IMG/VR virus record: IMGVR_UViG_3300045988_135167
Reading direction: 5' to 3' (one strand)
DNA from: a virus
DNA: 64,000 nt
Made by a program: the position numbers and the translations under genes. A model generated the notes under the pieces. That model saw only the letters and a program-made list of their open reading frames with translations. It made no database searches and was not told where the DNA came from. Shown here one piece after another: positions 19,100 to 47,500 of the stretch. Every line of letters starts with the position of its first letter. Positions within the stretch are counted from its first letter, which is position 1.

Positions 19100-20452
19100 C
19101 GCAGAACCTCCCTGACGAGCAATACCCCTGTTATCCTATTAAGGATGGGTTAAGGCTATCACAGCGGGAAGCAAAGTCAATTAGGATTTCATTAAAAATT
19201 CATATCCTTAATTATCTAGAATAAATTTCTATGATTCTCGCTTCGACAACTCGCTAACCTTCCACTGGTTCTCCCAGTCTCTAGTGAACTCGAATCTCCA
19301 CGAGCGTAAGTTTCCGACTCCTCATCGGTACAATATTTTAAAATATTCAACGCCGCATTCAGGTCCCTATCTGCGGTATAGCCACAAAAAGGACATTTAA
19401 ATGTGCGCTTGGATAAATCCTTCATCGCACGATGACGTTCTCCGCAACAAGAACATAACTGCGATGAAGGGTACCATGGATCAACAAGCTCAAACGTACG
19501 TCCTGCACGAACGCATTTATATTCAAGCTGACGACGTATCTCATAAAATGATTGCTCTCCAATACTTCGGGCGAGATGATGGTTTTTCATCATGCCCTTG
19601 GTGTTGAGCGTCTCCATCCGAATCGCTTGGTTCTCGCGAACAAGGAATGAAGTCATTTTATGGATAAAGTCTGTATGTTGGCGCATTAAGCGTCTGTTGC
19701 GTTTTGCCAATGCGATTTTGGCTCTTGTGCGTCTCTTGCTACCTTTATGGCAACGAGAAAAATGTCTTTGAGAAAGCTTGATGCGACGCAATGAACGCTT
19801 CAAAGGGTTCCAACAAAAGACTTTTCCATCAGAGCAAGTCACAGTGGATTTGAGGCCAAGATCAATACCAACTTCTTTATTTACTAAAGGAAGAGACTCA
19901 ACAGGGTAATCGAAAAGAACTGAGCAATAGTAATCAATCCCATCCGTAGAAAGAGTGGCTCGTTTCAATTTCACATCTGGGATATAACCTTTGTTGTAAA
20001 ACTTGACCCGACCAAGTTTAGCAAGGCGAAGATGGTTACCATCCTCAAGACGTGGAACTGTGGGACTTACAGAAGAATAAGACTGTCTTAACTCTTTCTT
20101 ACTCTTGAACTTAGGGTAACTTGCCGAATGTGACCAAAAGCGCTGAAATGCTTTTGAGAGATTGTCGAAAACAAACTTCGGTATTTGAGAATCACACTCA
20201 TTAAGCCACATGAAATTAGAGTCCTCTTTCTTAAGCTTTCTTATTTCATTCCCAAGGTCAAAAGCGGATGGCCTTTTGGGCCGCTGATCCTTGGGGTATC
20301 TTTGTTCTCTTCCCACCATTTGTTGAGTCTTTCCAATCCCCAATTCCAAAGGAATCTTGAAGCACCAAAATTCCGATGAACCAATTCTTTTTGGAACTTG
20401 TTCAAATGAACTTTCACTTTACGACTCTGAAACATAGTTAAATTAAAGCAAC
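19100..20452 (-). mobile_element. IS200/IS605-family tnpB-only (IS1341-like) element. The boundaries are approximate.
   Basis: TnpB ORF plus a hairpin-rich 3' flank, inserted 17 nt after the upstream gene's stop. Sits at the junction between the structural and replication modules. Confidence 0.55.
19216..20435 (-). pseudogene. tnpB: tnpB (IS605 OrfB, RNA-guided nuclease family), interrupted by a +1/-1 frameshift near 20270-20300.
   Basis: N-terminal fragment 20241..20435 (KVHLNKFQKELVHRNFGASRFLWNWGLERLNKWWEE, the OrfB N-terminal HTH) and the body 19216..20349 overlap in different frames. The body carries the RuvC/zinc-finger C-terminus CSCCGERH...CPFCGYTADRDLNAALNI. Confidence 0.65.
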
Positions 20453-21661
20453 TTATTTTTCCCTCAAAAGACGAACCGAAGTTTTCCGGGCCGTCACGAT
20501 CCCGGAAGTCTCCAGGTCATTGATCAGGGCTTGCTTGATGGCATCCCTTTCCTTTTTGTTCGCTTCAGGAGCCATCTTGTCCAGCAGGACCACCAGGGCC
20601 TTTTTGAAAGAGACGCTGTTGGTGCATGCCATCAGCTCTTCCTGCGTCAGCTCTTCCCGCAGGTAAGCGGTCAGGGCTTCCTTGTTCACAGTCAGAAGCT
20701 CGCCGCCATTGTCGAACTTCCAGCCGGGAACCGGAATCCCCATGGCATTGAGGCTCTTGGCCGTTTCCTTCAACTGGTTTTGAGCCTCGGAAGCCACCTT
20801 GTAAAAGGATAACAACTTGCCTACCAGCACATTGTTCTGCACGGCATCCAAAATGTTGCTTATGTCGGTTCCCTTCAGGTCTTCTTCCTTCAGCACTTCC
20901 GCGGAGAAGGAAATGGCCAGCTCCGTCACCCGGCGGCAGGATGCACATTTGGCACAATACGGGCACACATCCGGGGAGGACTGGTAGGTAAACGGATTTT
21001 CCCGGTCGCGGTTCCTCCGGGAAATCACCGCCTTGTAGCCATCGCGGGCCTGGCGGTAATCCCTGGCCGCAAAATTGACATGATTTTCCCGGAGCTTCTT
21101 TTTAGACGAGCGGACCATCCGGGCCACCTTCAGGCTGTCGGAAAGTGTGGGCTGGATCACGGCCAGATAACACTCCTGGCACTGGCGGTTCTCAGCGAAC
21201 TCGAACACGCCGTAAATCATCAGCTGGGAATTGTCCTTGGGGTGGGTCACGGGGAGAAGACCCATCTTGTAGTCGGCAATACAGGACTTGTCGCCGCACC
21301 GGATCAGCACGTCGGCCGTCCCGCTTTGCTTTTCCTTCAGGCCCTTGAACGTCACCCCGCGGAACTTGTGCTCCCGGATGATGTTCAACTCCCCGCGCCC
21401 CACGCCCCAGAGGGAGCAGAGTTCATCCAGCAGGGATTCCAGGTCCGTATTGGCCCGGTTGTACAGGGAGGATTCATGAACGGACAGCAGGGGTTCGGGG
21501 TCCTGCTTCTCCAGGGCATAGTGGATTCGGGAACCGACGGCGGCCGGGGAGAACTCGTCCTCTTCTTCGTCTTCCCGCTCACGGTCTTCATAGCCGGGAC
21601 AGGTAGCGATCATCATCACCTTGGAAGGTGAATACTTGGTATGACTTACAGGGGTACTCAT
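20453..21661 (-). CDS. PD-(D/E)XK nuclease of the Cas4/RecB type with a C-terminal Cys cluster, 402 aa.
   Basis: IADYKMG (D-x-K motif), QLMIYGV (QxxxY), and a C-terminal CPYCAKCASC iron-sulfur-type cysteine cluster. Confidence 0.55.
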   Translation of the reverse strand: MSTPVSHTKYSPSKVMMIATCPGYEDREREDEEEDEFSPAAVGSRIHYALEKQDPEPLLSVHESSLYNRANTDLESLLDELCSLWGVGRGELNIIREHKFRGVTFKGLKEKQSGTADVLIRCGDKSCIADYKMGLLPVTHPKDNSQLMIYGVFEFAENRQCQECYLAVIQPTLSDSLKVARMVRSSKKKLRENHVNFAARDYRQARDGYKAVISRRNRDRENPFTYQSSPDVCPYCAKCASCRRVTELAISFSAEVLKEEDLKGTDISNILDAVQNNVLVGKLLSFYKVASEAQNQLKETAKSLNAMGIPVPGWKFDNGGELLTVNKEALTAYLREELTQEELMACTNSVSFKKALVVLLDKMAPEANKKERDAIKQALINDLETSGIVTARKTSVRLLREK

Positions 21662-24168
21662 TTTTCTATCAGTGTTTCCAGGTTTTCTTTTTTCTCTTCA
21701 ATGACTGCGGCGATCTTTTCCTCAATGGTGTTGGCCGCAACCAAAATGAACTGCCGCGTGTCGCTCTTGGCTCCGGCGCGGTCAATGCGTCCCAATGCCT
21801 GGACATTATCAATCAGGCTGTAGGAGAGGCTTAAAAGGGAGGCACGGGGACGTTGCCCATTGATGTCATGCAGGGAGAGTCCGGCTCCCCCGGCCTGAAT
21901 CTGAATGAAAGCAATATGGGCTTCGTCCCGCTGGAACTTGTCAATGGCCGCCTGGCGGCTCTTTTTGGACTGCCTTCCATCAATCCGGACGGAGGGAACC
22001 TTCGGGAACATTTCTTCCAGCGCATTGATGCTGTCCAGGAAAGTGAGGAACACGACCACGGAACAACCTTCATCCAGAAGGTTTTGCAGGAACTCGGCAA
22101 TCGTCGGGATTTTGTGAAGCTCCACTTCCTGCCGGGCGCGGAGCAATTCCACCACAGCCGGAGGCCCGGCATAGTCCCGGCCTTCCTCAATGGCTTTCAT
22201 CATGGCTTCCTCGCTCTTGATCAGGTCGGCATCCAATGTATTCTCCATCTTCTCCAGCCACTTCTGCATGCTGTTGATCCGGGAGACGGTCTCCTTGTCG
22301 TAGTCCACCAGCACGGTCTGGATGAAGGAGGTGGTGAAGTAGGGAGCCATTTCCGAGCGGTCCACCTTGGTCAGAATCCCGGCTTCCTTGAGACGGGAGT
22401 TGATGCGCTCCATGTGGGAGATGGTGACTGGAGTGCGGACAAACTCCAGGCCGCCCCAGAAAGCGTGGGTGCATCCATGCTGAAGCATCCAGGCCGTCTG
22501 GGAGATGTAGTTGGTGAACATGCCGAAGGCATAGGCGAAGTAGCCCATGTCCAGCGGATTGATGAAGGGTGTAGCCGAGAGAAGGATCGTTGGTATCTTC
22601 ATGCGGGCGGCCGAAACAAAGGCCAGCCCTTGCAAAGAGAACCGCCCCGCCCGGAGGGCCTGGGCCTCGTCTGAGATAAGCACGGCATCATCCGGGAGGT
22701 TCCAGCGGCCGAGGTTGACGCACCGCTTGTCCCGGCGAACCGGAGGCTTGTACCACCGGGTGTTTCCACGGACCAGCTTGGCATAAGTAAGCACATCATA
22801 ATACTCCACCTTCTGCTGGTCCAGGGCGCGCTCCCAGGAAGAGACCACAGCCTTGGGACAGACCACCACCGGGCGTTTTCCCATGCGCTTCACCGTCTCT
22901 ACAGCCATCAAGGTATTATGGACAATGGTAAAATCACCAAGGAGAAAACGATGGTCCACGTCGTTTACAAACCCGTAATAATCTCCGACCCCTATTGCCT
23001 CTACTTTAAACCCGGTTCTTAAAACATTCTTCTTTTGTTTTCTAATTGAACATTTTCTTCTCGGTACTCGAACAGGTATGCAACTTATATTTCCAGATAT
23101 AACAATTATATAATATAAATCTTCCTTATTAGTATTGGTACAAACCTTTTTTCTAAGCTTGGAATAAGAAGCAAAACCTAATGATCTGGCTACAAATAAT
23201 ATGTCTTCACAAAATCCTTTATATTTTGTGGAAATCTCATAACATCCATTTGTTAAATACCCATCAGTATCAATGATACCTGCAAGAACATTTAATCGGG
23301 TTTCATGACTTCCACATTTATATGGGTGCTTTATCCGTCGTTCCTTCCCATTAAAAATATTTCTATAAATAATCTGTCGTGGAAGTTCTTGGTTCTTGCT
23401 TATACTGGTAAAACTTAAAGGGGTAACACGGTTTACCGCTTTTATTTCTTTTGCCCTCCATCCGATACTTTCAGCGTACCCTTTACAATATTCCAATACC
23501 TCATTATCAACATTGGTTATTTGAGAACACGGGTAGAGCTTTCCATTTACTGTTACAGGTGAAGAGCCATCACCCAAATAAACTCCTACAAAATAAGGGT
23601 CAAGCTCCGGTTTCTCTATCTCCGGGAAATCTACTCCGGTCCTTACCAGCTTGAATCGGTGTTTAAAAGTTTTGGATGATGAAAGATATTCTTTAAGAGA
23701 TATATCAATCAATTCCCCTGCCCAATATTTTCTACCTCCCAATGAAATTTTTACAGGTGTTGTTCCGGAAATTATACCTGTTATAATATGTTCATCGTTA
23801 ACAATATGGGGATCACCTTTAAAGGGAACGATACGATACATCGGGGCTTGGCCACGGGCAAGACTCAAAACTTGACGAGGACAAGAGTCCGGACCCATTA
23901 TTTTATCTCCGACACTTACTTGTTCAATAGGTTTAATTGTACCGTTGAACATCAGAACAGGAGTTCCTTTTCCGAAGCACTTGCCGACCCCGGTGTTGCT
24001 GGAGTTCAGCACAATCCCGTTGCGGCGCATGGACTCCAGCATTTCACCGATGCACCGCTCCTGCGGAGGGAACGGGTTCAGGGGTTCCGGAACATACGCC
24101 TTCTGCGTCTCCAGGGTTTTCCGGGAGGCATTGCCCGTATTGGTCAGTCGGATTCGTCGGGTCGGCAT
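21658..24168 (-). CDS. SNF2/DEAD-like helicase, 836 aa, interrupted by a 355-aa LAGLIDADG intein. The extein is about 481 aa.
   Basis: Walker A GVGK|T is split by the intein. DEAQALR motif II and C-terminal helicase motifs are present. Intein features: Cys1 (CFGKG), two LAGLIDADG blocks (VGVYLGDGSS and LAGIIDTDGYL), and a terminal HN followed by Thr. Confidence 0.7.
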   Translation of the reverse strand: MPTRRIRLTNTGNASRKTLETQKAYVPEPLNPFPPQERCIGEMLESMRRNGIVLNSSNTGVGKCFGKGTPVLMFNGTIKPIEQVSVGDKIMGPDSCPRQVLSLARGQAPMYRIVPFKGDPHIVNDEHIITGIISGTTPVKISLGGRKYWAGELIDISLKEYLSSSKTFKHRFKLVRTGVDFPEIEKPELDPYFVGVYLGDGSSPVTVNGKLYPCSQITNVDNEVLEYCKGYAESIGWRAKEIKAVNRVTPLSFTSISKNQELPRQIIYRNIFNGKERRIKHPYKCGSHETRLNVLAGIIDTDGYLTNGCYEISTKYKGFCEDILFVARSLGFASYSKLRKKVCTNTNKEDLYYIIVISGNISCIPVRVPRRKCSIRKQKKNVLRTGFKVEAIGVGDYYGFVNDVDHRFLLGDFTIVHNTLMAVETVKRMGKRPVVVCPKAVVSSWERALDQQKVEYYDVLTYAKLVRGNTRWYKPPVRRDKRCVNLGRWNLPDDAVLISDEAQALRAGRFSLQGLAFVSAARMKIPTILLSATPFINPLDMGYFAYAFGMFTNYISQTAWMLQHGCTHAFWGGLEFVRTPVTISHMERINSRLKEAGILTKVDRSEMAPYFTTSFIQTVLVDYDKETVSRINSMQKWLEKMENTLDADLIKSEEAMMKAIEEGRDYAGPPAVVELLRARQEVELHKIPTIAEFLQNLLDEGCSVVVFLTFLDSINALEEMFPKVPSVRIDGRQSKKSRQAAIDKFQRDEAHIAFIQIQAGGAGLSLHDINGQRPRASLLSLSYSLIDNVQALGRIDRAGAKSDTRQFILVAANTIEEKIAAVIEEKKENLETLIEK
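22915..23979 (-). other. Intein (Hint plus LAGLIDADG homing endonuclease) inserted in the helicase P-loop.
   Basis: Begins at Cys (TGC at 23977-23979) and ends at His-Asn (22915-22920) followed by Thr. Splicing restores NTGVGKTLMAVE. The central part (about 22980-23800) is markedly AT-rich relative to the flanks. Confidence 0.65.
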
Positions 24169-32318: not shown

Positions 32319-34080
32319 GATTTTTTAATAGGTGAAAAGTCAGAACAGAAAATCCCAAATAATCTAGTAAGACCCCCATCGTATATAGGGTAAGCGAGAG
32401 GTTAAGATTTTTTGGCTTTCCCAGGATATGACTAAGCGTCAGCGACTTATCGGTTTCCGTTAGTCCGTTAGCTATAAACTCCAATATATACATACGTGAG
32501 AAATGTAGTTATAAAAAAACACATATAGGAATGTCCGCGCGTTAAATGTGTGCGCGGGAGAAAGCCAACCGGAAGCTGAGGGCAAGCCCAAACCCATCTG
32601 TTTTATCCCGCCCTCGCAAAATTGCCCATTCCCGCCATTCTTTCATGTAGGGTGTACACCTAACAGGGCCTTCAGGTATAACTTTAAGCCTCGACCACTA
32701 TCACCATTCACCCTCTCGCATATTTTCAATTTTGGTTCCATCACCCTCCCTGGAACGCCCCTCCGGTGCTTTTCTCCGTGCCAGGGTGGATTCCCGGTTC
32801 GACGGACCCATGTTCCGTTGGCCCGCTCACGTGTACGCGCGACCCTGGCGCAAATCCCGGTTTGTCGTCCTGGCGAATCGTGAACCCGGCTTCAACGATC
32901 CTTCGCTTCAACGCTTCCCCGGTTCAAAACTTCGGCGACCCCATTTCCGGAAAAATGCGAGTTGAGGATTTGGATATGCGCGGCGGGCGGCTGAAGGGGG
33001 AGTGACCGTGGTGGTGTCAAAAAAGTTAGGTGCGACTTTTTTAGAATCATTCCAACATTGAAGCGGTGAATCGGAGCCGCGCCGGGAAAACCAAACGCCC
33101 TACCGTATAGCATAACTCGCTTATACTTAACAGTCTCTTAATCCATACTTCGCATAATATACGTAATGCCAAATCGGTTGCGTGTCCAGTGCATAACGCG
33201 TTGAAGCTTAGAACCTTGAACCCTTTTCCGTTGGCTTTTCGCTTGGGAGAATCTGCGATTCATTGGTTCAACGGTTCGGCGTAGCAAAAGAATCCATTCT
33301 GGAGCTTTACAAAATTGTAAAAAAGAGACTTTTCTTTTGCGCCAAATTGTAAATCCCTACCATTCCGATAGGGATAAACGCTGAAGCGTTGTAACGTAGT
33401 TGCGTTGAATCATTTAGCCACATACCAGAACCGACATATCAATGAATCACGATACGTTGATGCGTTGAATCGTTGAACTGTGGAAGGTCTGCAAGGAATA
33501 AAATTTTATGCTTGAATGTAAAACTTTTCTAAATCCCTATAAACCAATGACTTATAAGGATTTAGAATCACTGAATCAACAATCGGAGCATCGAAAAGGC
33601 ATAAAATTTTATACAATTCGGCTAAAATCATATAAAATTTTATCCAACTGATATTCAATCACTTGGGATAGAATCATGAAAAAACCCATAACGAAGCGTT
33701 GAATCATTGAAGCGTTGAATCGTAGAATCTTGTTCACTTTTTATACGCTTGTATAAAAAGTGACGGGGAAACCGGGAATCATGGAGCCGTGAAACTGGAA
33801 AAAAGTCCAAAATGGAGCCGTGAAACTGAAAAAGAGTCCAGAATGGAGCCGGAATGAGTCAAAACTTTTTATACAAGCGTATAAAAAGTGAACAAGGCTC
33901 ACATGCGAGGGTTGTATGACACAATCATAACCTATTGATACTGAACAGATAATAAAATTTTTGAAGAAAAGGATTGACGTAATAAAAAAAATAATGATAA
34001 AAGATAGTCATCAGCCGAACGAACTACAAACCGACTGAATCCAACAATCAAATACTAAACAATAGAAAGAACCAGCCAAC
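32319..34080. other. Non-coding divergent control region, a candidate replication origin. It contains iterons, palindromes and inverted repeats around a GC-rich structured island.
   Basis: No credible ORF. GCGTTGAATC occurs 4 times (33402, 33462, 33697, 33712) plus degenerate and inverted copies. ATAAAATTTTAT occurs 3 times. An inverted-repeat pair (CACTTTTTATA-n6-TATAAAAAGTG, 33735-33762 and 33866-33890) flanks three 31-bp direct repeats (33781-33865). Confidence 0.6.
32530..33035 (+). ncRNA. Candidate structured non-coding RNA. This is a GC-rich island with many hairpins, and the strand is uncertain.
   Basis: Hairpins at 32534-32558, 32578-32616, 32744-32767 and 32882-32928 (enclosing two CTTCAACG motifs), then an AU-rich stem plus T-run at 33017-33043. 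The translations look non-protein (Pro/Cys-rich, overlapping frames). Confidence 0.3.
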
Positions 34081-34344
34081 ATGAAGAGATACCGATTTGT
34101 GATTTACGCCTTGAAAGGCATTGCAGGCCTGAAAGCGGTTGACTCCCTGGAATGCTCTACGCTTTTGGAAACTATCCGGAAAGGCAAGCATGCCGTTGAA
34201 ACTAAAGGTGAAAGCCTTGTCATGTGGGTCCAAAAATACGAACCGGGTACTGAGCCGTCCGGCTGGCTGACAGTCACTGTGTTCACCCGCAAGGGCGGCC
34301 CGCGCTCCCATTGGATGGAAAAGCCGGACTACTCCCCCTATTAA
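34081..34344 (+). CDS. Early hypothetical protein, 87 aa.
   Basis: ATG 10 nt after AATAGAAAGAACCA. First gene of the rightward block. Confidence 0.45.
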   Translation: MKRYRFVIYALKGIAGLKAVDSLECSTLLETIRKGKHAVETKGESLVMWVQKYEPGTEPSGWLTVTVFTRKGGPRSHWMEKPDYSPY

Positions 34345-34371
34345 CCCTAAACCATAGAAAGACAATAGATT

Positions 34372-34467
34372 ATGACAGAAGAAAATAAAGAAATGGAATG
34401 GGAGACACACGCCCTTGCGAGTCAGGCGGCGGCCCGTGCTAATGCAACCCTTATATGGTGCGTGTGA
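34372..34467 (+). CDS. Small early ORF, 31 aa.
   Basis: ATG 9 nt after CATAGAAAGA. Not in the ORF track because it is under 60 aa. Confidence 0.3.
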   Translation: MTEENKEMEWETHALASQAAARANATLIWCV

Positions 34468-34480
34468 TTTTACCGTTCGC

Positions 34481-34506
34481 CGAATTGTTCCACGTGGAAC
34501 AATTCG
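34481..34506. promoter_or_regulatory. 26-bp perfect palindrome CGAATTGTTCCACGTGGAACAATTCG, followed by the hairpin GGCGAGGTTTTAATCTCGCC (34519-34538).
   Basis: Direct reading. Confidence 0.8.
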
Positions 34507-34572
34507 AGAATCACAAAAGGCGAGGTTTTAATCTCGCCGCATAAATAAGCCAATAGACAGGAAAATCAAATC

Positions 34573-34818
34573 ATGAAGCCTATCATTACATTCTGCAAGC
34601 CGGACCTTTCCGGAAAAATCGCGCCCCTTTGTGGCACGATGGATTCCTATTTGGACGACGGCCGCCGCTCCCTGGAGTCCATTAAACAATCTGCATGGGA
34701 AGAATTGAAGCGACGGAACGCCCATTCAAAAACCAATTATGCCGGGTTTGTCATTTATAATGCCATTTCCTTCCCATGGCGCACCGTGTACAAAACCCAT
34801 GAAGAAATTGAGGATTGA
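34573..34818 (+). CDS. Early hypothetical protein, 81 aa.
   Basis: ATG follows CCAATAGACAGG, a variant of the upstream motif. Confidence 0.4.
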   Translation: MKPIITFCKPDLSGKIAPLCGTMDSYLDDGRRSLESIKQSAWEELKRRNAHSKTNYAGFVIYNAISFPWRTVYKTHEEIED

Positions 34819-34856
34819 ACCTTTAATTTGAAGGAAAAAGCATATATCTTTGAATC

Positions 34857-35054
34857 ATGATAACTTCATATATTCCCCCTTGCCTTCAGCGGTCCGCGCG
34901 TGAATTGGAGCTTGAACTGGCAAAGACCCGGTGGATTCAAGCCGTTGAATACCTGAAAGAAGAAATTGAAAATAACAAGCACGACAAGCGGAAAGTCCGC
35001 GCCTTGCTTCAACGGCTCCGGGATCAATATTCATGGAGGCCTGCTATTTATTAA
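34857..35054 (+). CDS. Early hypothetical protein, 65 aa.
   Basis: ORF. Confidence 0.3.
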   Translation: MITSYIPPCLQRSARELELELAKTRWIQAVEYLKEEIENNKHDKRKVRALLQRLRDQYSWRPAIY

Positions 35055-35194
35055 ATAAAAAATAATGAACAAAAAGCTTGCAATCCGGTTCAAGCAAGCA
35101 TAGATTGAAAGCATCAACTGAGGCGGCCCGCCGCACAGGGCAATCCAAATCCGGTTATCACCGGAAAACTAAAATCCAAACCAAAAACTAATTT

Positions 35195-35608
35195 ATGAAT
35201 ACTAAAGAAAGACGCACAGAAGACCTTCTAAGGGCATTTGGAATTCGATTTTCTAAATTTAAATTAGGTCTTAGAATCCCGCCGCACTGGGGCGACTGTC
35301 AAGATCGTCACATGGAATATTTGGTACGGTTTGAACGATTGAAGCCGCGGAGGGGCGAAAAAGATGTGTTAAACGTTTTATGGTACGCTTCTTTACTGAG
35401 ACCAAATGAATGCACAGCGTTTGACGTTCTGACTACCTTGACTAAAGAAAAGTTCGCCGATTTTGAAGATTTCGCGGATCAACTTGGTATGGATTATTCC
35501 AAAAAAAGTTACAAGCTTTACAACGCCATCCAACAGGAAGCGGAAGACGTGATAGCTTTCTTTTCCCGTGAAAATGAATTGAACTTAATTTCTACCCTCG
35601 AAGACTAA
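35195..35608 (+). CDS. Early hypothetical protein, 137 aa.
   Basis: ORF. Confidence 0.4.
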   Translation: MNTKERRTEDLLRAFGIRFSKFKLGLRIPPHWGDCQDRHMEYLVRFERLKPRRGEKDVLNVLWYASLLRPNECTAFDVLTTLTKEKFADFEDFADQLGMDYSKKSYKLYNAIQQEAEDVIAFFSRENELNLISTLED

Positions 35609-35610
35609 AC

Positions 35611-36066
35611 ATGAATCCATTAGTACAAAGAGAATTAGGCTTGCTGATAGTATCCGTGTCCATGAACCTTGATGGAACGGGAACACTGACTTTTGATCAC
35701 AAGCATCGCGGCATGCTCAAAACCATGTCATTTCCGAAACTGCCGGACGCGCTCAATATGCAGGAACGCATTATTCGTTATACCTGTGAAAAATTGAATA
35801 GGGTCAAGTCTTCAAAAGGGCATGTAGTCAACTTTTTTAGGCTATCTCCTTCTCTTGTCATGGTGAAGGCTCCCATGAACTATTTGACAATGATACAGGG
35901 AGATGGACAAAAGCTTAACGTTGATTATGCGACCGCCTTGTTTGCCGAACTGAAAGAAGGTAGGTTGGTTTCCGATTTTTTCCCGATTCCGGAAGAATTG
36001 GAAGTTGTTTATTACAAGGTGGAAGATGATCATCTTGTCATGGTGATTGAAGATAAGTCACGCTGA
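35611..36066 (+). CDS. Early hypothetical protein, 151 aa.
   Basis: ORF, start overlapping the previous stop. Confidence 0.4.
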   Translation: MNPLVQRELGLLIVSVSMNLDGTGTLTFDHKHRGMLKTMSFPKLPDALNMQERIIRYTCEKLNRVKSSKGHVVNFFRLSPSLVMVKAPMNYLTMIQGDGQKLNVDYATALFAELKEGRLVSDFFPIPEELEVVYYKVEDDHLVMVIEDKSR

Positions 36067-36079
36067 ACCCTTAATCCCT

Positions 36080-36109
36080 CCGGAAAATGTTCCACGTGGA
36101 ACAATCCGG
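36080..36109. promoter_or_regulatory. Palindrome with the perfect core TGTTCCACGTGGAACA (36088-36103) and imperfect outer arms, followed by the hairpin GGCAGGATTAAAATCCTGCC (36131-36150).
   Basis: Direct reading. Confidence 0.75.
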
Positions 36110-36182
36110 GAACCTCAAACCAAATCAAAAGGCAGGATTAAAATCCTGCCACGTAAACAAACCAATAGAAAGAACCAACAAT

Positions 36183-36815
36183 ATGAACGCTAATTCAATT
36201 TATGAACTGGAACAATTAAAGGAAAAAGTCGCGCTGAACCGTTGCATCCTGGAAATCTGGATCGACGTATTGCCTCACATGGACAAATGCTTTAAAACTT
36301 TTCAGGAATGGCTTGAAAAGCACCAAGGGCAAGTGATTAACAAGCGCGTGAATACAGCCATGAAAGAAGCCTTTCGTGGGTTTGATTTCCCGAACTTATC
36401 CCACAAGGAGTTTAGGAATGTTTCCCTGCGAACGTTTGTAGATTTTGAATTTTCCCGTTATCAGGTAAACGCTTTTCAATTTTCTGTTAACATGGAGGTA
36501 ATCTACTCTTTGAAGACTGACGAATTTGGATGTAAATATGATAAAAGTTTTTGGATTAACGAAGACGGTATGACAATCGGCAAGATTGACGTTAATTTAG
36601 TTGAAGGAATTAAAAACATGCGTAGAAAGTTGAAGAAGAAAATCCATGAGGCAAAAGATTTGTTGAATCACTATGAAGACCGCATGGCCGTTCTTGTTCA
36701 AAAAGCGGAAGCATGTCTTCAGGCAATGGAAGACTGGGAGAAAGCAACAAACCTTTTTAATAGCCCGCGCTGCTTTATTGCTGTGGAATCCTGCCCTAAA
36801 TTGAATAAACGTTAA
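36183..36815 (+). CDS. Early hypothetical protein, about 210 aa. The start is MNANSIYELEQ.
   Basis: ATG 9 nt after CCAATAGAAAGAACCA. The upstream extension in the ORF track starts at the ATG inside the palindrome and is an artefact. Confidence 0.45.
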   Translation: MNANSIYELEQLKEKVALNRCILEIWIDVLPHMDKCFKTFQEWLEKHQGQVINKRVNTAMKEAFRGFDFPNLSHKEFRNVSLRTFVDFEFSRYQVNAFQFSVNMEVIYSLKTDEFGCKYDKSFWINEDGMTIGKIDVNLVEGIKNMRRKLKKKIHEAKDLLNHYEDRMAVLVQKAEACLQAMEDWEKATNLFNSPRCFIAVESCPKLNKR

Positions 36816-36875
36816 ACCTTGAACTCGCCGGGGAGCTTCAAACTCCCCCGGCATTGAATAGAAAGAAACCTAGTC

Positions 36876-37397
36876 ATGATCAATCTTCAAAAACCTGTAA
36901 TGGTAAGCAATGAAGCTTTCCTTGAATGCCTGGACATTCCCACATGGGCAATCAATTATTTGGAATATGGGGAGGACGAAACGGAAGAACTTCATCCGGA
37001 CGATTTGGCCCTTGTCGAGTCATTCAGAAGGAAATGGGATCACCTTGAACGAAAATCGGAAGAGTTCTATTCCAACTCTCCGGCGTTTGGTCTTCCGTCC
37101 ACCGTGGAAACATGGGCTTGCATTCCAAAAATCCTTTCCGGGTTTGTCTCCTACGCTCCCCTGAACCGTAGAATCGGCGTAAACGGAAACGTTATTTATT
37201 ACACGCAAAAGGAGAACGGAACCTGGAAGATTGTTTATGGTCTTGCATCCGTTTCCCTGGATGGAAGAAAAACAGTCGGCGTGTGCGTCAATGAAGTCCT
37301 GGAACGGATACGCCTGGCAAAAGATGAACGTGTTAAAGGGTTCATAATCAGAAGTCATAACACAGTTCTTTTTAAATCAAACAAAAACATAGCCTAA
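36876..37397 (+). CDS. Early hypothetical protein, 173 aa.
   Basis: ATG 9 nt after GAATAGAAAGAAACC. A hairpin (CCGGGGAG...CTCCCCCGG) lies just upstream. Confidence 0.45.
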   Translation: MINLQKPVMVSNEAFLECLDIPTWAINYLEYGEDETEELHPDDLALVESFRRKWDHLERKSEEFYSNSPAFGLPSTVETWACIPKILSGFVSYAPLNRRIGVNGNVIYYTQKENGTWKIVYGLASVSLDGRKTVGVCVNEVLERIRLAKDERVKGFIIRSHNTVLFKSNKNIA

Positions 37398-39814: not shown

Positions 39815-40142
39815 AAGCTACCAGTGGTTGCTGGACCACACGCGCCTGAAGGTTGCTGAAGACTACCTGCTCTTCGTGTACAACCTGCTGACCTGGGATC
39901 GCCGCCGGGAAGAACCCTTCGATGAAGAACTGTTCTGGGTTGTCCGGATCATCCTCATTGAAGGAAAGGTCCGGGACCTAGTGGAAAAGGGAATCAAGGA
40001 AGGCCGCAACCCCGGCCACCTGGCCCTGGAATGCGCCATTTACTACGCCGAAAAAGACACGGAATTCAATAATCAAATCCTTAACCTCAAAGAATTATAT
40101 GACAGAATCACAGCTAATGGAACTTCGGGAGCTGATCATTAA
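39723..40142 (+). CDS. Hypothetical protein, 139 aa.
   Basis: ORF overlapping its neighbours. Confidence 0.35.
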   Translation: MARSAVTGTPSPQKARGSLPLPWMQRRTLTESYQWLLDHTRLKVAEDYLLFVYNLLTWDRRREEPFDEELFWVVRIILIEGKVRDLVEKGIKEGRNPGHLALECAIYYAEKDTEFNNQILNLKELYDRITANGTSGADH

Positions 40143-42042
40143 AGCGAACGAAGCCTACTATCGGGACAACAATCCCACCATGCCGGACTACGACTACGAC
40201 CAGCTGATCATGCGGTTGCGAGGCGAATGCCCGGACGATCCCCTTCTGAACCGGATCGGGGATGACCGGAAAAACGGAGCCAAGGTGCGCCACCCCTTCC
40301 CCCTGCTTTCCCTGGACAACGTGTATGAAAAAGAAGGCGACGACCAGATGGCCCTGGAGTTGAAATTGCTTCAGCGATTTTCCTCGGAACCCCTGCTGGT
40401 TGTTGAACCCAAGGTGGACGGTCTGACCTTGATGCTCTGCTATGAAAAGGGCAAGCTGGTCTCGGCGGCTACCCGCGGCAACGGCCTGGAAGGAGAGGAC
40501 GTGCTGGAAACTGTCCGGAAGTATGTGAATGGCATTCCCGGAGAGATCAGCGAAGAGATTACGGTCTTCATTCGGGGTGAAGTTTTTATCTCGCTGGATG
40601 AAGACCTTCCGGAAGGCTACACCAGCTACCGCAATGCCGCTTCCGGCCTGTTGCGAAAGAAAGGGGCCGACCCCAACAAGAACCTGCTTTCCTTCCTGGC
40701 CTATGACTGCTGGTATCGCTACCAGGATGGCCGGATTGATTCGGTGATGGTGGACCGGAGGGGCAACGAAACCTTCTTCCACAGCGAGGGCATCGGTTAT
40801 GTCCCTTCCTTCCACTGGCATAGCCGGGTTCCCAGCTCCACCCCTTTCAAGCACATGATGGATTGCTTCAGGGAAAACTACAACCTGCCCATGGACGGGC
40901 TGGTCTTCAAGATCAATGACCTCTACGAAGCGTCGAAGTGTGAATCAACGTCCCACCATCCCACGCACAGCTATGCGCTGAAGTTCATTCCGGAATCCGT
41001 TGAAACCACCATCACGGACATCACCTGGCAGGTGGGACGCACCGGGGTGGTCACGCCTGTGGTCTGGTACGATCCGGTGGTCCTGGACGGGGCCGAGTGC
41101 CGAAAATGCACGGGATTCAATCCGGAGCAACTGGCGGTTCGCGGCATCGGGCCGGGAGCCGTGGTCCGCGTGATGAAAGCCGGGATGGTGATCCCCTATA
41201 TCCAGGAGGTCAAGACCAAGGCTGAACTGAACCTGCCTTCCAGCTGTCCGGAGTGCGGGACTCCGCTTCACTTCAACGGACCCATGCTCCATTGCCCCTC
41301 CCAGGCTTGCCCGGCCAAGCTCCATGCCGCCCTGGAGTATGCGCTGGGGAAAAATGCGCTGGATGTGAAGAACATCGGACCCCAGTACCTGAAGGAGTTC
41401 CTGGACCAGGCCCGCAAGGAGCATGAAGAAGATGGGTTGATGATGGTTTCCCGGATGGACTACTGGTTCCAAATCTTTGAGAAGGTCCACCTTCTTACGC
41501 CCCGCATGCGTAAGTGCTTTGATGAGGCAGTGCCAGGGTTCACCCTGTCAAAAATGATCGCGGCTCTGGGCATTCCTTCCATCGGCAAGGAGAAGGCCCG
41601 AATCATTGCCCGCAGGTTCAACGATCTTGGGGCCTTTATCCAGCTGGCCGGAAGCGTATCCCTATCAGAATACTCGGATTTAGGGGAAGCCGCTTACAAG
41701 TCACTGGAGAACTATTTGAAATCCAGTGAGTTTGAATACTTCAAGACCCTTTACTATTCCGCTTTGATTCCCAACGTGCCCGGAGACCTGGCCCAGGGTG
41801 ACTCGCTGAAGGGATTGACGTTTGTGATCACAGGCTCCTTCCCCAAGGACCGATCCTATTATGTGGCCCTCATTGAAAATGAAGGGGGAGCCGTGAAGAA
41901 CAGCGTCAGTGCCAGGACCTCCTACCTGATCGCCGGGGAGAAGGTGGGCAAGACCAAGACGGAAGCGGCCCGGCTCAAGGGAGTCCAGGTCATTTCCCTG
42001 GAGCAGTTCATGAACCTCATGCAGGAAAGGAAGGCCCAATGA
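40099..42042 (+). CDS. ligA: NAD-dependent DNA ligase, 647 aa.
   Basis: Adenylation motif VVEPKVDGLTL (KxDG); Cys4 zinc finger CPECGTPLHFNGPMLHCPSQACPAK; C-terminal BRCT-like LKGLTFVITGSFPKD. Confidence 0.8.
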   Translation: MTESQLMELRELIIKANEAYYRDNNPTMPDYDYDQLIMRLRGECPDDPLLNRIGDDRKNGAKVRHPFPLLSLDNVYEKEGDDQMALELKLLQRFSSEPLLVVEPKVDGLTLMLCYEKGKLVSAATRGNGLEGEDVLETVRKYVNGIPGEISEEITVFIRGEVFISLDEDLPEGYTSYRNAASGLLRKKGADPNKNLLSFLAYDCWYRYQDGRIDSVMVDRRGNETFFHSEGIGYVPSFHWHSRVPSSTPFKHMMDCFRENYNLPMDGLVFKINDLYEASKCESTSHHPTHSYALKFIPESVETTITDITWQVGRTGVVTPVVWYDPVVLDGAECRKCTGFNPEQLAVRGIGPGAVVRVMKAGMVIPYIQEVKTKAELNLPSSCPECGTPLHFNGPMLHCPSQACPAKLHAALEYALGKNALDVKNIGPQYLKEFLDQARKEHEEDGLMMVSRMDYWFQIFEKVHLLTPRMRKCFDEAVPGFTLSKMIAALGIPSIGKEKARIIARRFNDLGAFIQLAGSVSLSEYSDLGEAAYKSLENYLKSSEFEYFKTLYYSALIPNVPGDLAQGDSLKGLTFVITGSFPKDRSYYVALIENEGGAVKNSVSARTSYLIAGEKVGKTKTEAARLKGVQVISLEQFMNLMQERKAQ

Positions 42043-44528: not shown

Positions 44529-47500
44529 GTGCGTCAGATTAACGGCGCGCACCATCCTTTTATTATGGCTATTGATTATTCCAAGTTAAGACCTTCCGAC
44601 TTTCGACCGGAAAGAGATTCAGAGTTCCGGGCTGAAACCAATTTCCTTCAGCGGCAGGAGGACCGATCCACCCGGCTCCAGAAGGAAGAGGGGCAAGCCC
44701 AGGTCGAAGCCGAAGAACCGCTGGCCAAGTTTGAACAGGAGCTGGCCAAGACGATTGAACGGAATCGGAAGAATGCCGAGAGTGCGGAAGACCGCCAGCT
44801 CCGGTTGACCCGCCAGCAACAGGCCGACATTGACAAGGAAACTTCCAAGTTCGTGGCCACCACCACACGGGAGGACCGGGCCACGACCCAGGCAAACCAG
44901 AAAGCTGAGAGCAGGTTGGCCGCGCTGGGAAAAACCGGGAGAAGCGGTCTGGTATTCAATACGATTGAAGAGGCCGAACAGTATAACAGCCGTCCGGATA
45001 CTGACTTTGTTGACTATGTGTCAGGAGGCGCGGAAGCTTTCCGCAACAAGGCTTCTTCCCTGGGCCTGTCCGTGGTTGATCCGGCTTCCCTTCCCCAGCC
45101 TGTCAAGACCCGGCCAGCCCAGCAACGGGGAGATGAATTGACCGGGACCATGCTCAAGCGCAGTCCCTATGGTATAGCCGTCGGCAGTGATGGAAGCATT
45201 GTGGTCTCCGACAAGTTCATGCAGTTCGCCCTGAACCCGGACCTGGACCCGGCGACCCTGGCCAAGAATATTTCCCGAACATTTGATGCGTTTAAAAAAG
45301 AAGCCAATCCCACGCAGAACCCAAACAGCGAGATCAATTCACGCAACCTTGCACCCGAAGACATTGAACAACAAATCAGAACCCTCCGGGCCAGTGATGT
45401 CCGGACCCGTGATTCCGTCCGGAAAATCCTGCAAGAGCGGCAGGACGCGCTATCAAAGTACAAAGCAAGAGAAGAGAAGATTCAGCAAATCCAGGGTGGA
45501 AGCCCCGGCCAGCAAACTCAACGGCAGGAAGGAACCCCGCAAGTGGGGGAGCCGCTTGGAGGTGGCGAATCTTCTGAACTCACGTTCGTCCAGAACGTCA
45601 TCAGCCAGATCGACCGCCTCCGCACCGAGCCGGAACTTGCCGCTGAAGCCTTCGGGGAACAGCTCGCCGGACAGACAGACGCACAATCCGTAGCCCAGCG
45701 CGGAGCGGTGGCCGATGAATTGCAGTCGGCAATCGACCAGCAGGAGCGTTACAAACGCACGGAGGAACTGGCCGCCCGCATGCGGCTGATTGAAGAGAAC
45801 AAGGACAAGCTCGCCGAATCGCTGGTGCGCCAATCGCCCAACCTGGAATTCAGAACCATCCGCAAGGAGCTGGATGATGACAGCTTGATGGCCAATGAAG
45901 CGTTGGAGCAATGGGTCGTGAACCGTGGATTCCCTTTGACTCCGCAGGAAGCCGACATTATTAACAGCCGCTCCAATGAACTCTCCGCAAACGCGGCAAT
46001 CGCCGATGACTATGAGAAGGCCAGGGACCAGGCGGTGAGGGAATATCTCAAGTCCCAGGATGCGTCGCTGGATGACCGGGGCATTGATACCATGGGCCTT
46101 CAGCACTATGCCATGCGGCACATGGGCCAGCTTGACCAGGACAATTCCCCGGAGCGCGTGGCCAGGGAAGCCCTGCGCCATTGGGCCTCGGAGGCCCGGC
46201 AGATTTTTGGCGGCCAGGCGTTTGAGTCCGACCAGATGGTCAACCCCCTGGATGCGTTGCAGTGGGTCCACCGTCCGGAGACCGGGAAGTATATCCTTCA
46301 ATTCATTGATCCCACCACCAAGGAGGGGTATGGCAACGGCTATGAAGTGGACTTCATGGGGGTGCATGACAACGCCCGCCGCCTCGGCGTTACACCGGAA
46401 CAATACCTCGACGCTTTGGCCCTCCCCCTGCGCCAGGGAAACCTGGGTGACAGCCGGGACACCAACACACTCTTCGCTTATGATCCCATTAACCAGGTTC
46501 TTGTGGAAAATGCAACGATTGGGCAGGGCAATTCCGCAAGCTATTTTGATGATGCCCTGCTTGAGCGCAGTATTGAACAGGCCCGGAAAGCTGGCGCGCC
46601 GCAAGAGCAAATTGATGCGACCGTCAAAGAGGTCCAGCGCGTCCGGGATGAAGCGAGCCGTATCGTGGTCTCGGACCTCCTTCAGGAGTCGGATGCCATG
46701 GCCCTGGTCAGCGACACACCGCTTGAGGGGATCATCCCCCAGTCGGTCAAGGACAGCATCCAGGCATCCACGGCTGTCAATTTCCGGCAGTTCTATGACA
46801 TTGAAAAGAAAGCGGGCAAGGATGATCAGGAGATCATCCGGGACTACATGTCCGATGTGAAGGACAAGAAAATATCCATGGGGGTCAACATGGCCCTGGC
46901 CCGCTGGGAGAATCAGTGGAACCGCATCAAGCTGGCTTCCGAACAGTGGACCAAATCCGCGCTCTCCCTGCTCCCCGGAGTCAACCTCAACGAGGGACAG
47001 GGCCAGCGGTATGCTTCCGAATGGGAAGCCTTGAACAAGCGTGACCAGCTGATCACTTCTGCCGTGGGACGCGCCGGGTCCGTGGCAGAGTGGACGGGAG
47101 AATTTGGATCACTGGCTCTCCAGTTGGGAGAGTCTGCAATCTCAGGGGGATTGGGTTCCCTGGCCGGACGCGGGGCGGCCCGGCTTCTGGCCACCCGCGC
47201 CGCAACGATTGCAGGAACCAGCGTGGCTCTCCGAAGTGCTGAAGTGGTGGGAGCCGTAGCCCGGCCCGGAATCACCAGCCGCATCGGGCAGGGAGTCACC
47301 CGGCTCCTGACAACGGAGTCTGCAACCCTGGCCCGGCTCGGAGCCGGGACGGCCAACTCCATGTACATTGCCATGCAGAGCATGCCCCAGACCTACGGGG
47401 ATGTCTTCACCCACCGCTACCAGCAAGCCAGGGAGATGATCAACAACGATCCCCTCACCCGGAACATGGCCGAAGGAATGAAGGACGAGCTGGCCCAGAA

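Follow-up and report, generated by a model that had tools for sequence, protein, structure and literature searches.

Inteins that interrupt the Walker A motif (P-loop) of ATPases between the invariant Lys and the nucleophilic Thr occupy what has been called the "classic" P-loop insertion point (PMC5050341). Such insertions are common in the ATPases of bacteria, archaea and phages (PMC5050341, PMC4760082), and the SNF2/HepA helicases of superfamily II (SF2) are among the 15 most frequent bacterial intein hosts (PMC4760082). Here, we describe an intein of 355 amino acids (aa) located at this point in an SNF2-like SF2 helicase of an uncultured phage. The gene was found in the virus record IMGVR_UViG_3300045988_135167, a DNA stretch of 64,000 nucleotides (nt) that is referred to below as the window. 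The intein is unexceptional within a large family described before; it sits at the best-known insertion site and is of a kind common in phage helicases.

The best solved relative of the intein by sequence is PI-SceI, the yeast VMA1 intein (1.8e-22, phmmer against the PDB), and the match spans the N-terminal Hint part plus intein residues 118-355. The two inteins share the Hint domain with a nested two-motif LAGLIDADG endonuclease, the NxxH of block B, the terminal HN and the catalytic Asp pair, and are about 20-23% identical over the structural alignment (PDB 1vde, 1lws, 1dfa). However, PI-SceI is 454 aa long, so that the phage intein is 99 aa shorter, and the insert in the Hint domain is far smaller here where PI-SceI has its DNA-recognition region. 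The two also differ in the +1 residue (Cys in PI-SceI, Thr here), in the residue at PI-SceI position K301 (R214 here) and in the host protein, which is subunit A of the V-ATPase in yeast and the P-loop of an SF2 helicase in the phage.

A tblastn search with the intein returned 305 phage records at 37-44% identity (phages of Salmonella, Klebsiella, Vibrio, Escherichia and Mycobacterium, as well as others), several of them annotated as intein-containing helicases. Five were opened: Klebsiella phage JD001, Vibrio phage PS65A.1, Pseudomonas phage Touem01, Escherichia phage Bas95 ("similar to intein") and Salmonella phage St162 ("putative intein-containing helicase"). They are alike in family and in the insertion point, which reads GxGK/C...HN/T in all five. 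The inteins match at 1e-76 to 1e-93 with 38-44% identity over the full length, and the exteins have no detectable similarity to the helicase studied here (E >= 0.06). In all of them the GC content of the intein is below that of the exteins, but the gap is 3-9 points, compared with about 20 in the window. The mycobacteriophage intein TerL1-a and the inteins DnaB-b (DnaBi1), MCM-a and RFC-a also interrupt Walker A between Lys and Thr or Ser, in different hosts; they are likened here by site, not by sequence. The bacterial SNF2/HepA inteins are likened by host class only, the host in our case being a short phage SNF2-like protein.

Among the full-length relatives from metagenomes, 62 of 76 are preceded by GK, 74 end in HN, and 71 have T (41) or S (30) as the next residue. 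Their hosts include DnaB, ABC ATPases, AAA proteins, dTMP kinase, thymidine kinase, PhoH and KaiC-like proteins, among others. More distant relatives (about 28-30% identity) were seen in five large-subunit proteins of RNA polymerase (P0219, P0221, P0236, P0215 and P0232), three of them located after GKR with Cys at +1 and two after NS with Ser at +1. The intein family is therefore not restricted to P-loops.

The intein starts with CFGKG at residue 64 of the 836-aa precursor and ends with TIVHN at residue 418, and the insertion point falls between the Walker A Lys and Thr (GVGK/C...HN/T). When the intein was deleted in silico, a protein of 481 aa was obtained, reading ...NTGVGK/TLMAVE..., with the canonical Walker A sequence GVGKT. 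A first-pass annotation of this DNA, made from the sequence alone, had claimed an insert of exactly this kind; the translation reproduced its length and coordinates to the residue, as well as its placement, and the intein-free alleles described below read GVGK/T unbroken. Both dodecapeptide blocks that it listed are present, and on re-reading all splice-junction residues were found in place (C1, the N and H of block B, the terminal HN and Thr+1). The features of the gene are collected in Table 1.

Table 1. Coordinates of the split helicase gene, its intein and the conserved motifs in the window
Feature	Coordinates	Strand	Source
Precursor open reading frame (ORF), 836 aa, SF2 (SNF2-like) helicase split by the intein	21658..24168	-	ORF list, Pfam
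N-extein, 63 aa, ending in the Walker A residues SNTGVGK (23980..24000)	23980..24168	-	Translation
Intein, 355 aa, precursor residues 64-418, PI-SceI type	22915..23979	-	Pfam, PDB, AlphaFold2, Foldseek
C-extein, 418 aa and stop, with the Helicase_C lobe after motif II	21658..22914	-	Translation, Pfam
Thr+1, completing the Walker A motif	22912..22914	-	Translation
First four C-extein codons, ACC TTG ATG GCT	22903..22914	-	Comparison of alleles
Motif II, DEAQ, in the C-extein	22660..22671	-	Translation
Block A, CFGKGTPVLMFNG, with the Cys1 nucleophile at 23977..23979	23941..23979	-	Alignment of 78 inteins, PI-SceI C1
Block B, HIVNDEHIITG; N61/H64 correspond to PI-SceI N76/H79	23776..23808	-	Alignment
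First LAGLIDADG motif, PYFVGVYLGDGSS; D137 corresponds to PI-SceI catalytic D218	23560..23598	-	Alignment
NGKERRIKHPYKC, with R214 in the column of PI-SceI K301	23314..23352	-	Alignment
Second LAGLIDADG motif, NVLAGIIDTDGYL; D239 corresponds to PI-SceI catalytic D326	23254..23292	-	Alignment
Blocks F and G, DYYGFVNDVDHRFLLGDFTIVHN, ending in His354-Asn355	22915..22983	-	Alignment

The Pfam search of the precursor yielded Hom_end_hint (7e-21), Hom_end (2e-8) and LAGLIDADG_3 (2e-6). All pass the curated cutoffs and, like the PI-SceI match, lie far outside what chance would give, and the assignment to the LAGLIDADG-type inteins made in the first-pass annotation is thereby upheld. For the conservation of single residues, the intein was aligned with the 76 full-length relatives and PI-SceI (78 inteins), and an alignment of 50 sequences was used as well. 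C1 is kept in 96% of the 78 inteins and aligns with C1 of PI-SceI. In block B, where the (T/N)xxH pattern reads N61-D-E-H64, H64 is invariant and N61 is conserved in at least 90% of the aligned inteins. H354 and N355 are invariant in the alignment, and the +1 residue is T419 of the precursor. Both catalytic Asp residues of the LAGLIDADG motifs, D137 and D239, are conserved, as is block F; D237, D239 and G240 are invariant in the 50-sequence alignment. At the position of R214, 91% of the relatives as well as PI-SceI (K301) have Lys.

The AlphaFold2 model of the intein, built on the 50-sequence alignment, had a predicted local distance difference test score (pLDDT) of 95 and a predicted template modelling (TM) score (pTM) of 0.93. 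Its best Foldseek matches in the PDB were the PI-SceI structures (1vde; E 2e-25, TM 0.76), followed by the TliVMA and PI-PfuI inteins, the Prp8 inteins and I-DmoI. We regard it as virtually certain that the insert is a class-1 intein of the PI-SceI type, namely a Hint splicing domain with a nested LAGLIDADG homing endonuclease. It is very likely competent for splicing, and its endonuclease is probably active at present.

The cluster of helicase proteins at 90% identity has 91 members of three lengths (836, 481 and 416 aa), and its contigs appear to number more than 300. The 836-aa form comprises the protein of the window itself, those of other contigs and the NCBI entry UVX80933.1 ("MAG: Hom-end-associated Hint [Bacteriophage sp.]"). 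The 481-aa form is free of the intein. One such protein, P0250, matches the predicted spliced product at every residue (100% identity), and P0001, P0252 and P0253 likewise lack the insert. P0001 (481 aa, 98% identical), which was found with the spliced sequence as the query, is encoded on L006, a syntenic contig of 31.9 kb that is about 96% identical in DNA to the window and in which precisely the intein is missing. The comparison with intein-free homologues proposed earlier thus showed that the insert is cleanly absent from near-identical alleles.

The commonest form, of 416 aa (P0243 alone occurs on at least 254 contigs), starts with MAVE..., at the Met two residues into the C-extein (21658-22908 in the window; loci L009-L013 and L023-L036). 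We considered these proteins as products of decayed or split inteins and rejected this explanation, since the 836-aa ORF is open and intact in 21 of the 21 contigs read that bear the 416-aa gene call. The 416-aa protein is an artefact of gene prediction, in which the AT-rich intein is evidently passed over and the N-extein and Walker A are lost with it. The intein is present in most sampled copies of this phage species, near fixation, and is not confined to the genome of the window. Separately, an ENA contig of 4122 bp encodes a protein (P0131) with the identical N-extein and about 121 first residues of the intein (97% identical), followed by an outer-membrane-efflux-like sequence. It is probably a chimeric assembly with the break inside the AT-rich intein.

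The GC content of the intein is 0.369, and that of the core delimited in the first-pass annotation (22980-23800) is 0.350, compared with 0.614 for the N-extein, 0.569 for the C-extein and 0.525 for the whole window. At third codon positions (GC3) it is 0.27 in the intein and 0.73-0.79 in the exteins. The intein is the lowest-GC interval of 1065 bp in the whole 64 kb (z = -3.1; 0.03% of windows of this size are as low), and its AT-rich composition is indeed foreign to the host gene. Further low-GC stretches (0.38-0.47 per kb) lie at about 33000-37000, 55000-57000 and 1-2000. They hold small ORFs, two of which were searched and gave no family match, and could be further foreign or accessory segments.

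For the population analysis, we used 22 intein-bearing copies (21 related contigs and the window) and 10 intein-free alleles. The 22 copies carry 11 nucleotide haplotypes of the intein that are up to 5.6% apart. They comprise two main types, A and B, separated by 58 nt, together with clean A/B recombinants and a third, diverged type. The reading frame, C1, H64, D137, D239 and the terminal HN are kept in every copy, and not one copy is decayed. Between types A and B, the ratio of nonsynonymous to synonymous divergence (dN/dS) is 0.14 for the intein as a whole and 0.10 for its endonuclease part, that is, the intein is under purifying selection. The synonymous divergence itself is 0.18 in the intein and 0.035-0.05 in the C-extein, a four- to fivefold difference. 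The supposition that the acquisition was recent was not borne out by these data, since the intein is found in most copies, its haplotypes are up to 5.6% apart and its dS exceeds that of the host gene. It has been in circulation in this population for some time, and its composition has still not drifted to that of the host.

The A-type inteins that differ by 2-3 nt from the intein of the window adjoin C-exteins that are 32-40 nt apart, i.e., helicase backgrounds that differ by 3%. As near-identical inteins stand beside diverged C-exteins, the intein must have moved between diverged genomes.

The sequences flanking the insertion site also differ between the two kinds of alleles. Directly after the junction, all 22 intein-bearing alleles read AC[C/T] TTG ATG GC[T/C], whereas the intein-free alleles read ACG CTC ATG GCC in seven cases and ACC [C/T]TG GAA GCA in three. 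The first four codons of the C-extein thus separate all intein-bearing alleles from all intein-free ones. Fused across the site, the intein-bearing flanks read ...GGGGTCGGCAAG/ACCTTGATGGCT..., the L014 type reads ...GGCAAG/ACGCTCATGGCC... and the L006 type ...ACAGGTACGGGCAAG/ACCTTGGAAGCA.... In the closest intein-free alleles (L014-17), the 1446-nt gene has nine differences, of which four, each synonymous, occur in the 12 nt that follow the site; the flanks of these alleles differ nowhere else, the upstream side being identical. L006 has 65 differences, of which 19 are clustered in 58 nt around the site (hypergeometric 4e-13). The four-codon stretch probably arose by co-conversion or belongs to the endonuclease target, as far as the allele comparison indicates. 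A simple co-conversion tract from an AT-rich donor, as suggested by the L006 flank, holds only in part, since L014-17 differ only after the site. Homing with short co-conversion would produce such flanks, as would the survival of empty sites resistant to the endonuclease, or both together. The pattern is not proof of cleavage; co-conversion and target-site resistance are not distinguishable from these alleles.

The following scheme draws on the biochemistry of inteins and LAGLIDADG enzymes. The 836-aa precursor would be made with a split P-loop and would be unable to bind ATP. Cys1 would form a thioester with Lys63, Thr+1 would then attack this thioester, and Asn355 would cyclise with the help of His354, freeing the intein. 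An O-N shift would restore the native K-T peptide bond, giving the 481-aa helicase with GVGKT. Because the intein splits the P-loop, it is a sound inference that the activity of the helicase would depend on splicing. The freed 355-aa intein would act as a site-specific endonuclease, cutting intein-free helicase genes across the insertion point during co-infection, and repair from the intein-bearing copy would insert the intein plus a few flanking bases (homing). Taken as a whole, the explanation that this is a genuine class-1 PI-SceI-type intein that splices in the helicase P-loop and homes appears highly probable to us.

Several points weigh against this explanation. Splicing and cleavage are both predictions from sequence and structure. 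With Arg in place of the conserved Lys, the endonuclease could be weakened or dead; K301 of PI-SceI is part of its active site. The selection seen in the endonuclease part may reflect only the folding needed for splicing. Finally, ordinary phage recombination or hitch-hiking, not homing driven by the endonuclease, could account for the mosaic pattern and for the clustering of differences in the flanks.

These points lead to the rival that survives best, namely an intein that splices but whose endonuclease is dead or domesticated. Its imprecise loss would ruin the essential P-loop, and its spread would be due to descent and ordinary recombination. R214, common to all 11 haplotypes, would fit such a state, near fixation leaves few targets for homing, and phage genomes recombine freely anyway. 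Nevertheless, an endonuclease part with a dN/dS of 0.10, an invariant pair of catalytic Asp residues and 0 decayed copies out of 22 is not what a dead enzyme would be expected to leave. The near-identical inteins in helicase backgrounds 3% apart also speak for mobility, and none of the intein-free alleles has a cleavable-looking flank. We therefore consider a dead or domesticated endonuclease unlikely.

If the endonuclease is active, it might be a weapon that phages of a single gut species direct at each other during co-infection, cutting the helicase gene of competitors that lack the intein and thereby converting or excluding them. This idea is doubtful at present. If true, it would explain the near fixation of the intein and the changed, mostly synonymous, target bases in the surviving intein-free alleles, and the alleles described here would document, in an uncultured phage sampled from nature, an arms race over homing in which some target alleles have become resistant.

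An improbable alternative, raised by analogy, is that the intein has acquired a role as a post-translational switch, with conditional splicing (for example, under redox or metal control at Cys1) gating the helicase. Conditional splicing is documented for the mycobacterial DnaB P-loop intein DnaBi1 (PMC6195587), whose insertion site is identical, and an intein that is intact and near fixation would suit such a role. However, no feature of the sequence points to regulation, and intein-free alleles are viable within the same phage species. A switch would in any case be compatible with a splicing and homing intein and does not exclude it. That the 355-aa segment is a native helicase domain or a pseudogene-like disruption, never excised, is scarcely credible given close alleles that lack precisely this segment, the complete set of block A, B, F and G residues, relatives in dozens of unrelated NTPases and a P-loop that would stay split for good. 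An assembly chimera joining AT-rich foreign DNA to a phage contig, to which the sharp change in composition and the existence of one chimeric contig (that of P0131) might point, is refuted, since at least 21 contigs from independent assemblies of different samples show the same in-frame junctions.

The spliced helicase contains Helicase_C above the Pfam cutoff (4.9e-8), and GVGKT, DEAQ and the Helicase_C lobe together make up the SF2 core. The first-pass annotation had called the protein SNF2-type. This is only loosely supported, by Helicase_C and by the best sequence matches in the PDB, which are SNF2/Rad54 enzymes and cover the C-terminal lobe only; however, SNF2-rel_dom stayed below its cutoff (16.8 vs 24.9 bits), as did ResIII and DEAD. 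The homologue P0012 passes SNF2-rel_dom at 29.9 bits. "SNF2-like SF2 helicase" is a fair description on these profile matches, and full SNF2 membership is tentative. With the gene as the query, megablast gave no match in 50,697 phage records, a collection from which the phage itself is absent, and tblastn with the spliced helicase found only distant matches in the phage records (23-25% identity).

This case leaves the current understanding of inteins unchanged. Its value lies mainly in annotation: the helicase would be functional only after splicing, and most public gene calls for it are the 416-aa form, which lacks the N-extein, the Walker A residues that precede the intein, and the intein itself. 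The intein-bearing, intein-free and recombinant alleles on the many sampled contigs can serve directly as data on how inteins home in a natural phage population, and a compact 355-aa intein of the PI-SceI type with Thr at +1 is a possible candidate for protein engineering.

The phage has a genome of about 70 kb, with related contigs of up to about 71 kb. The helicase gene belongs to the replication module and is flanked by the genes for a family A DNA polymerase and a DUF2800/PD-(D/E)XK nuclease. A VapE-like primase-helicase, ThyX and an NAD-dependent DNA ligase (647 aa, 40099-42042 (+), PHROG 3869 at 1.7e-131) are also encoded nearby. Most structural genes of the window had no PHROG match, and the Rfam scan of the window found nothing; no tRNA genes were found either. 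An ORF of 3323 aa at 44529-54500 (+) gave nothing above threshold in Pfam or PHROGs. A protein of this length recalls the virion RNA polymerases of N4-like or crAss-like phages, an assignment that neither Pfam nor PHROGs supported.

A second mobile element is present about 1.2 kb from the intein-bearing gene. It is an insertion of 1262 bp (19183-20444, GC 0.41) directly after the stop codon of the DUF2800/PD-(D/E)XK gene, and Rfam gave no match to a guide RNA there. The insertion codes for a TnpB-like protein of 377 aa (ORF 19216..20349 (-)), identified by Pfam OrfB_IS605 (5e-20), the Cas12f1-like TNB domain (5e-25) and a PHROG transposase (3e-100). It is polymorphic, being missing from L006, L012, L014-22 and others, and the relatives carry two different TnpB forms at this intergenic spot.

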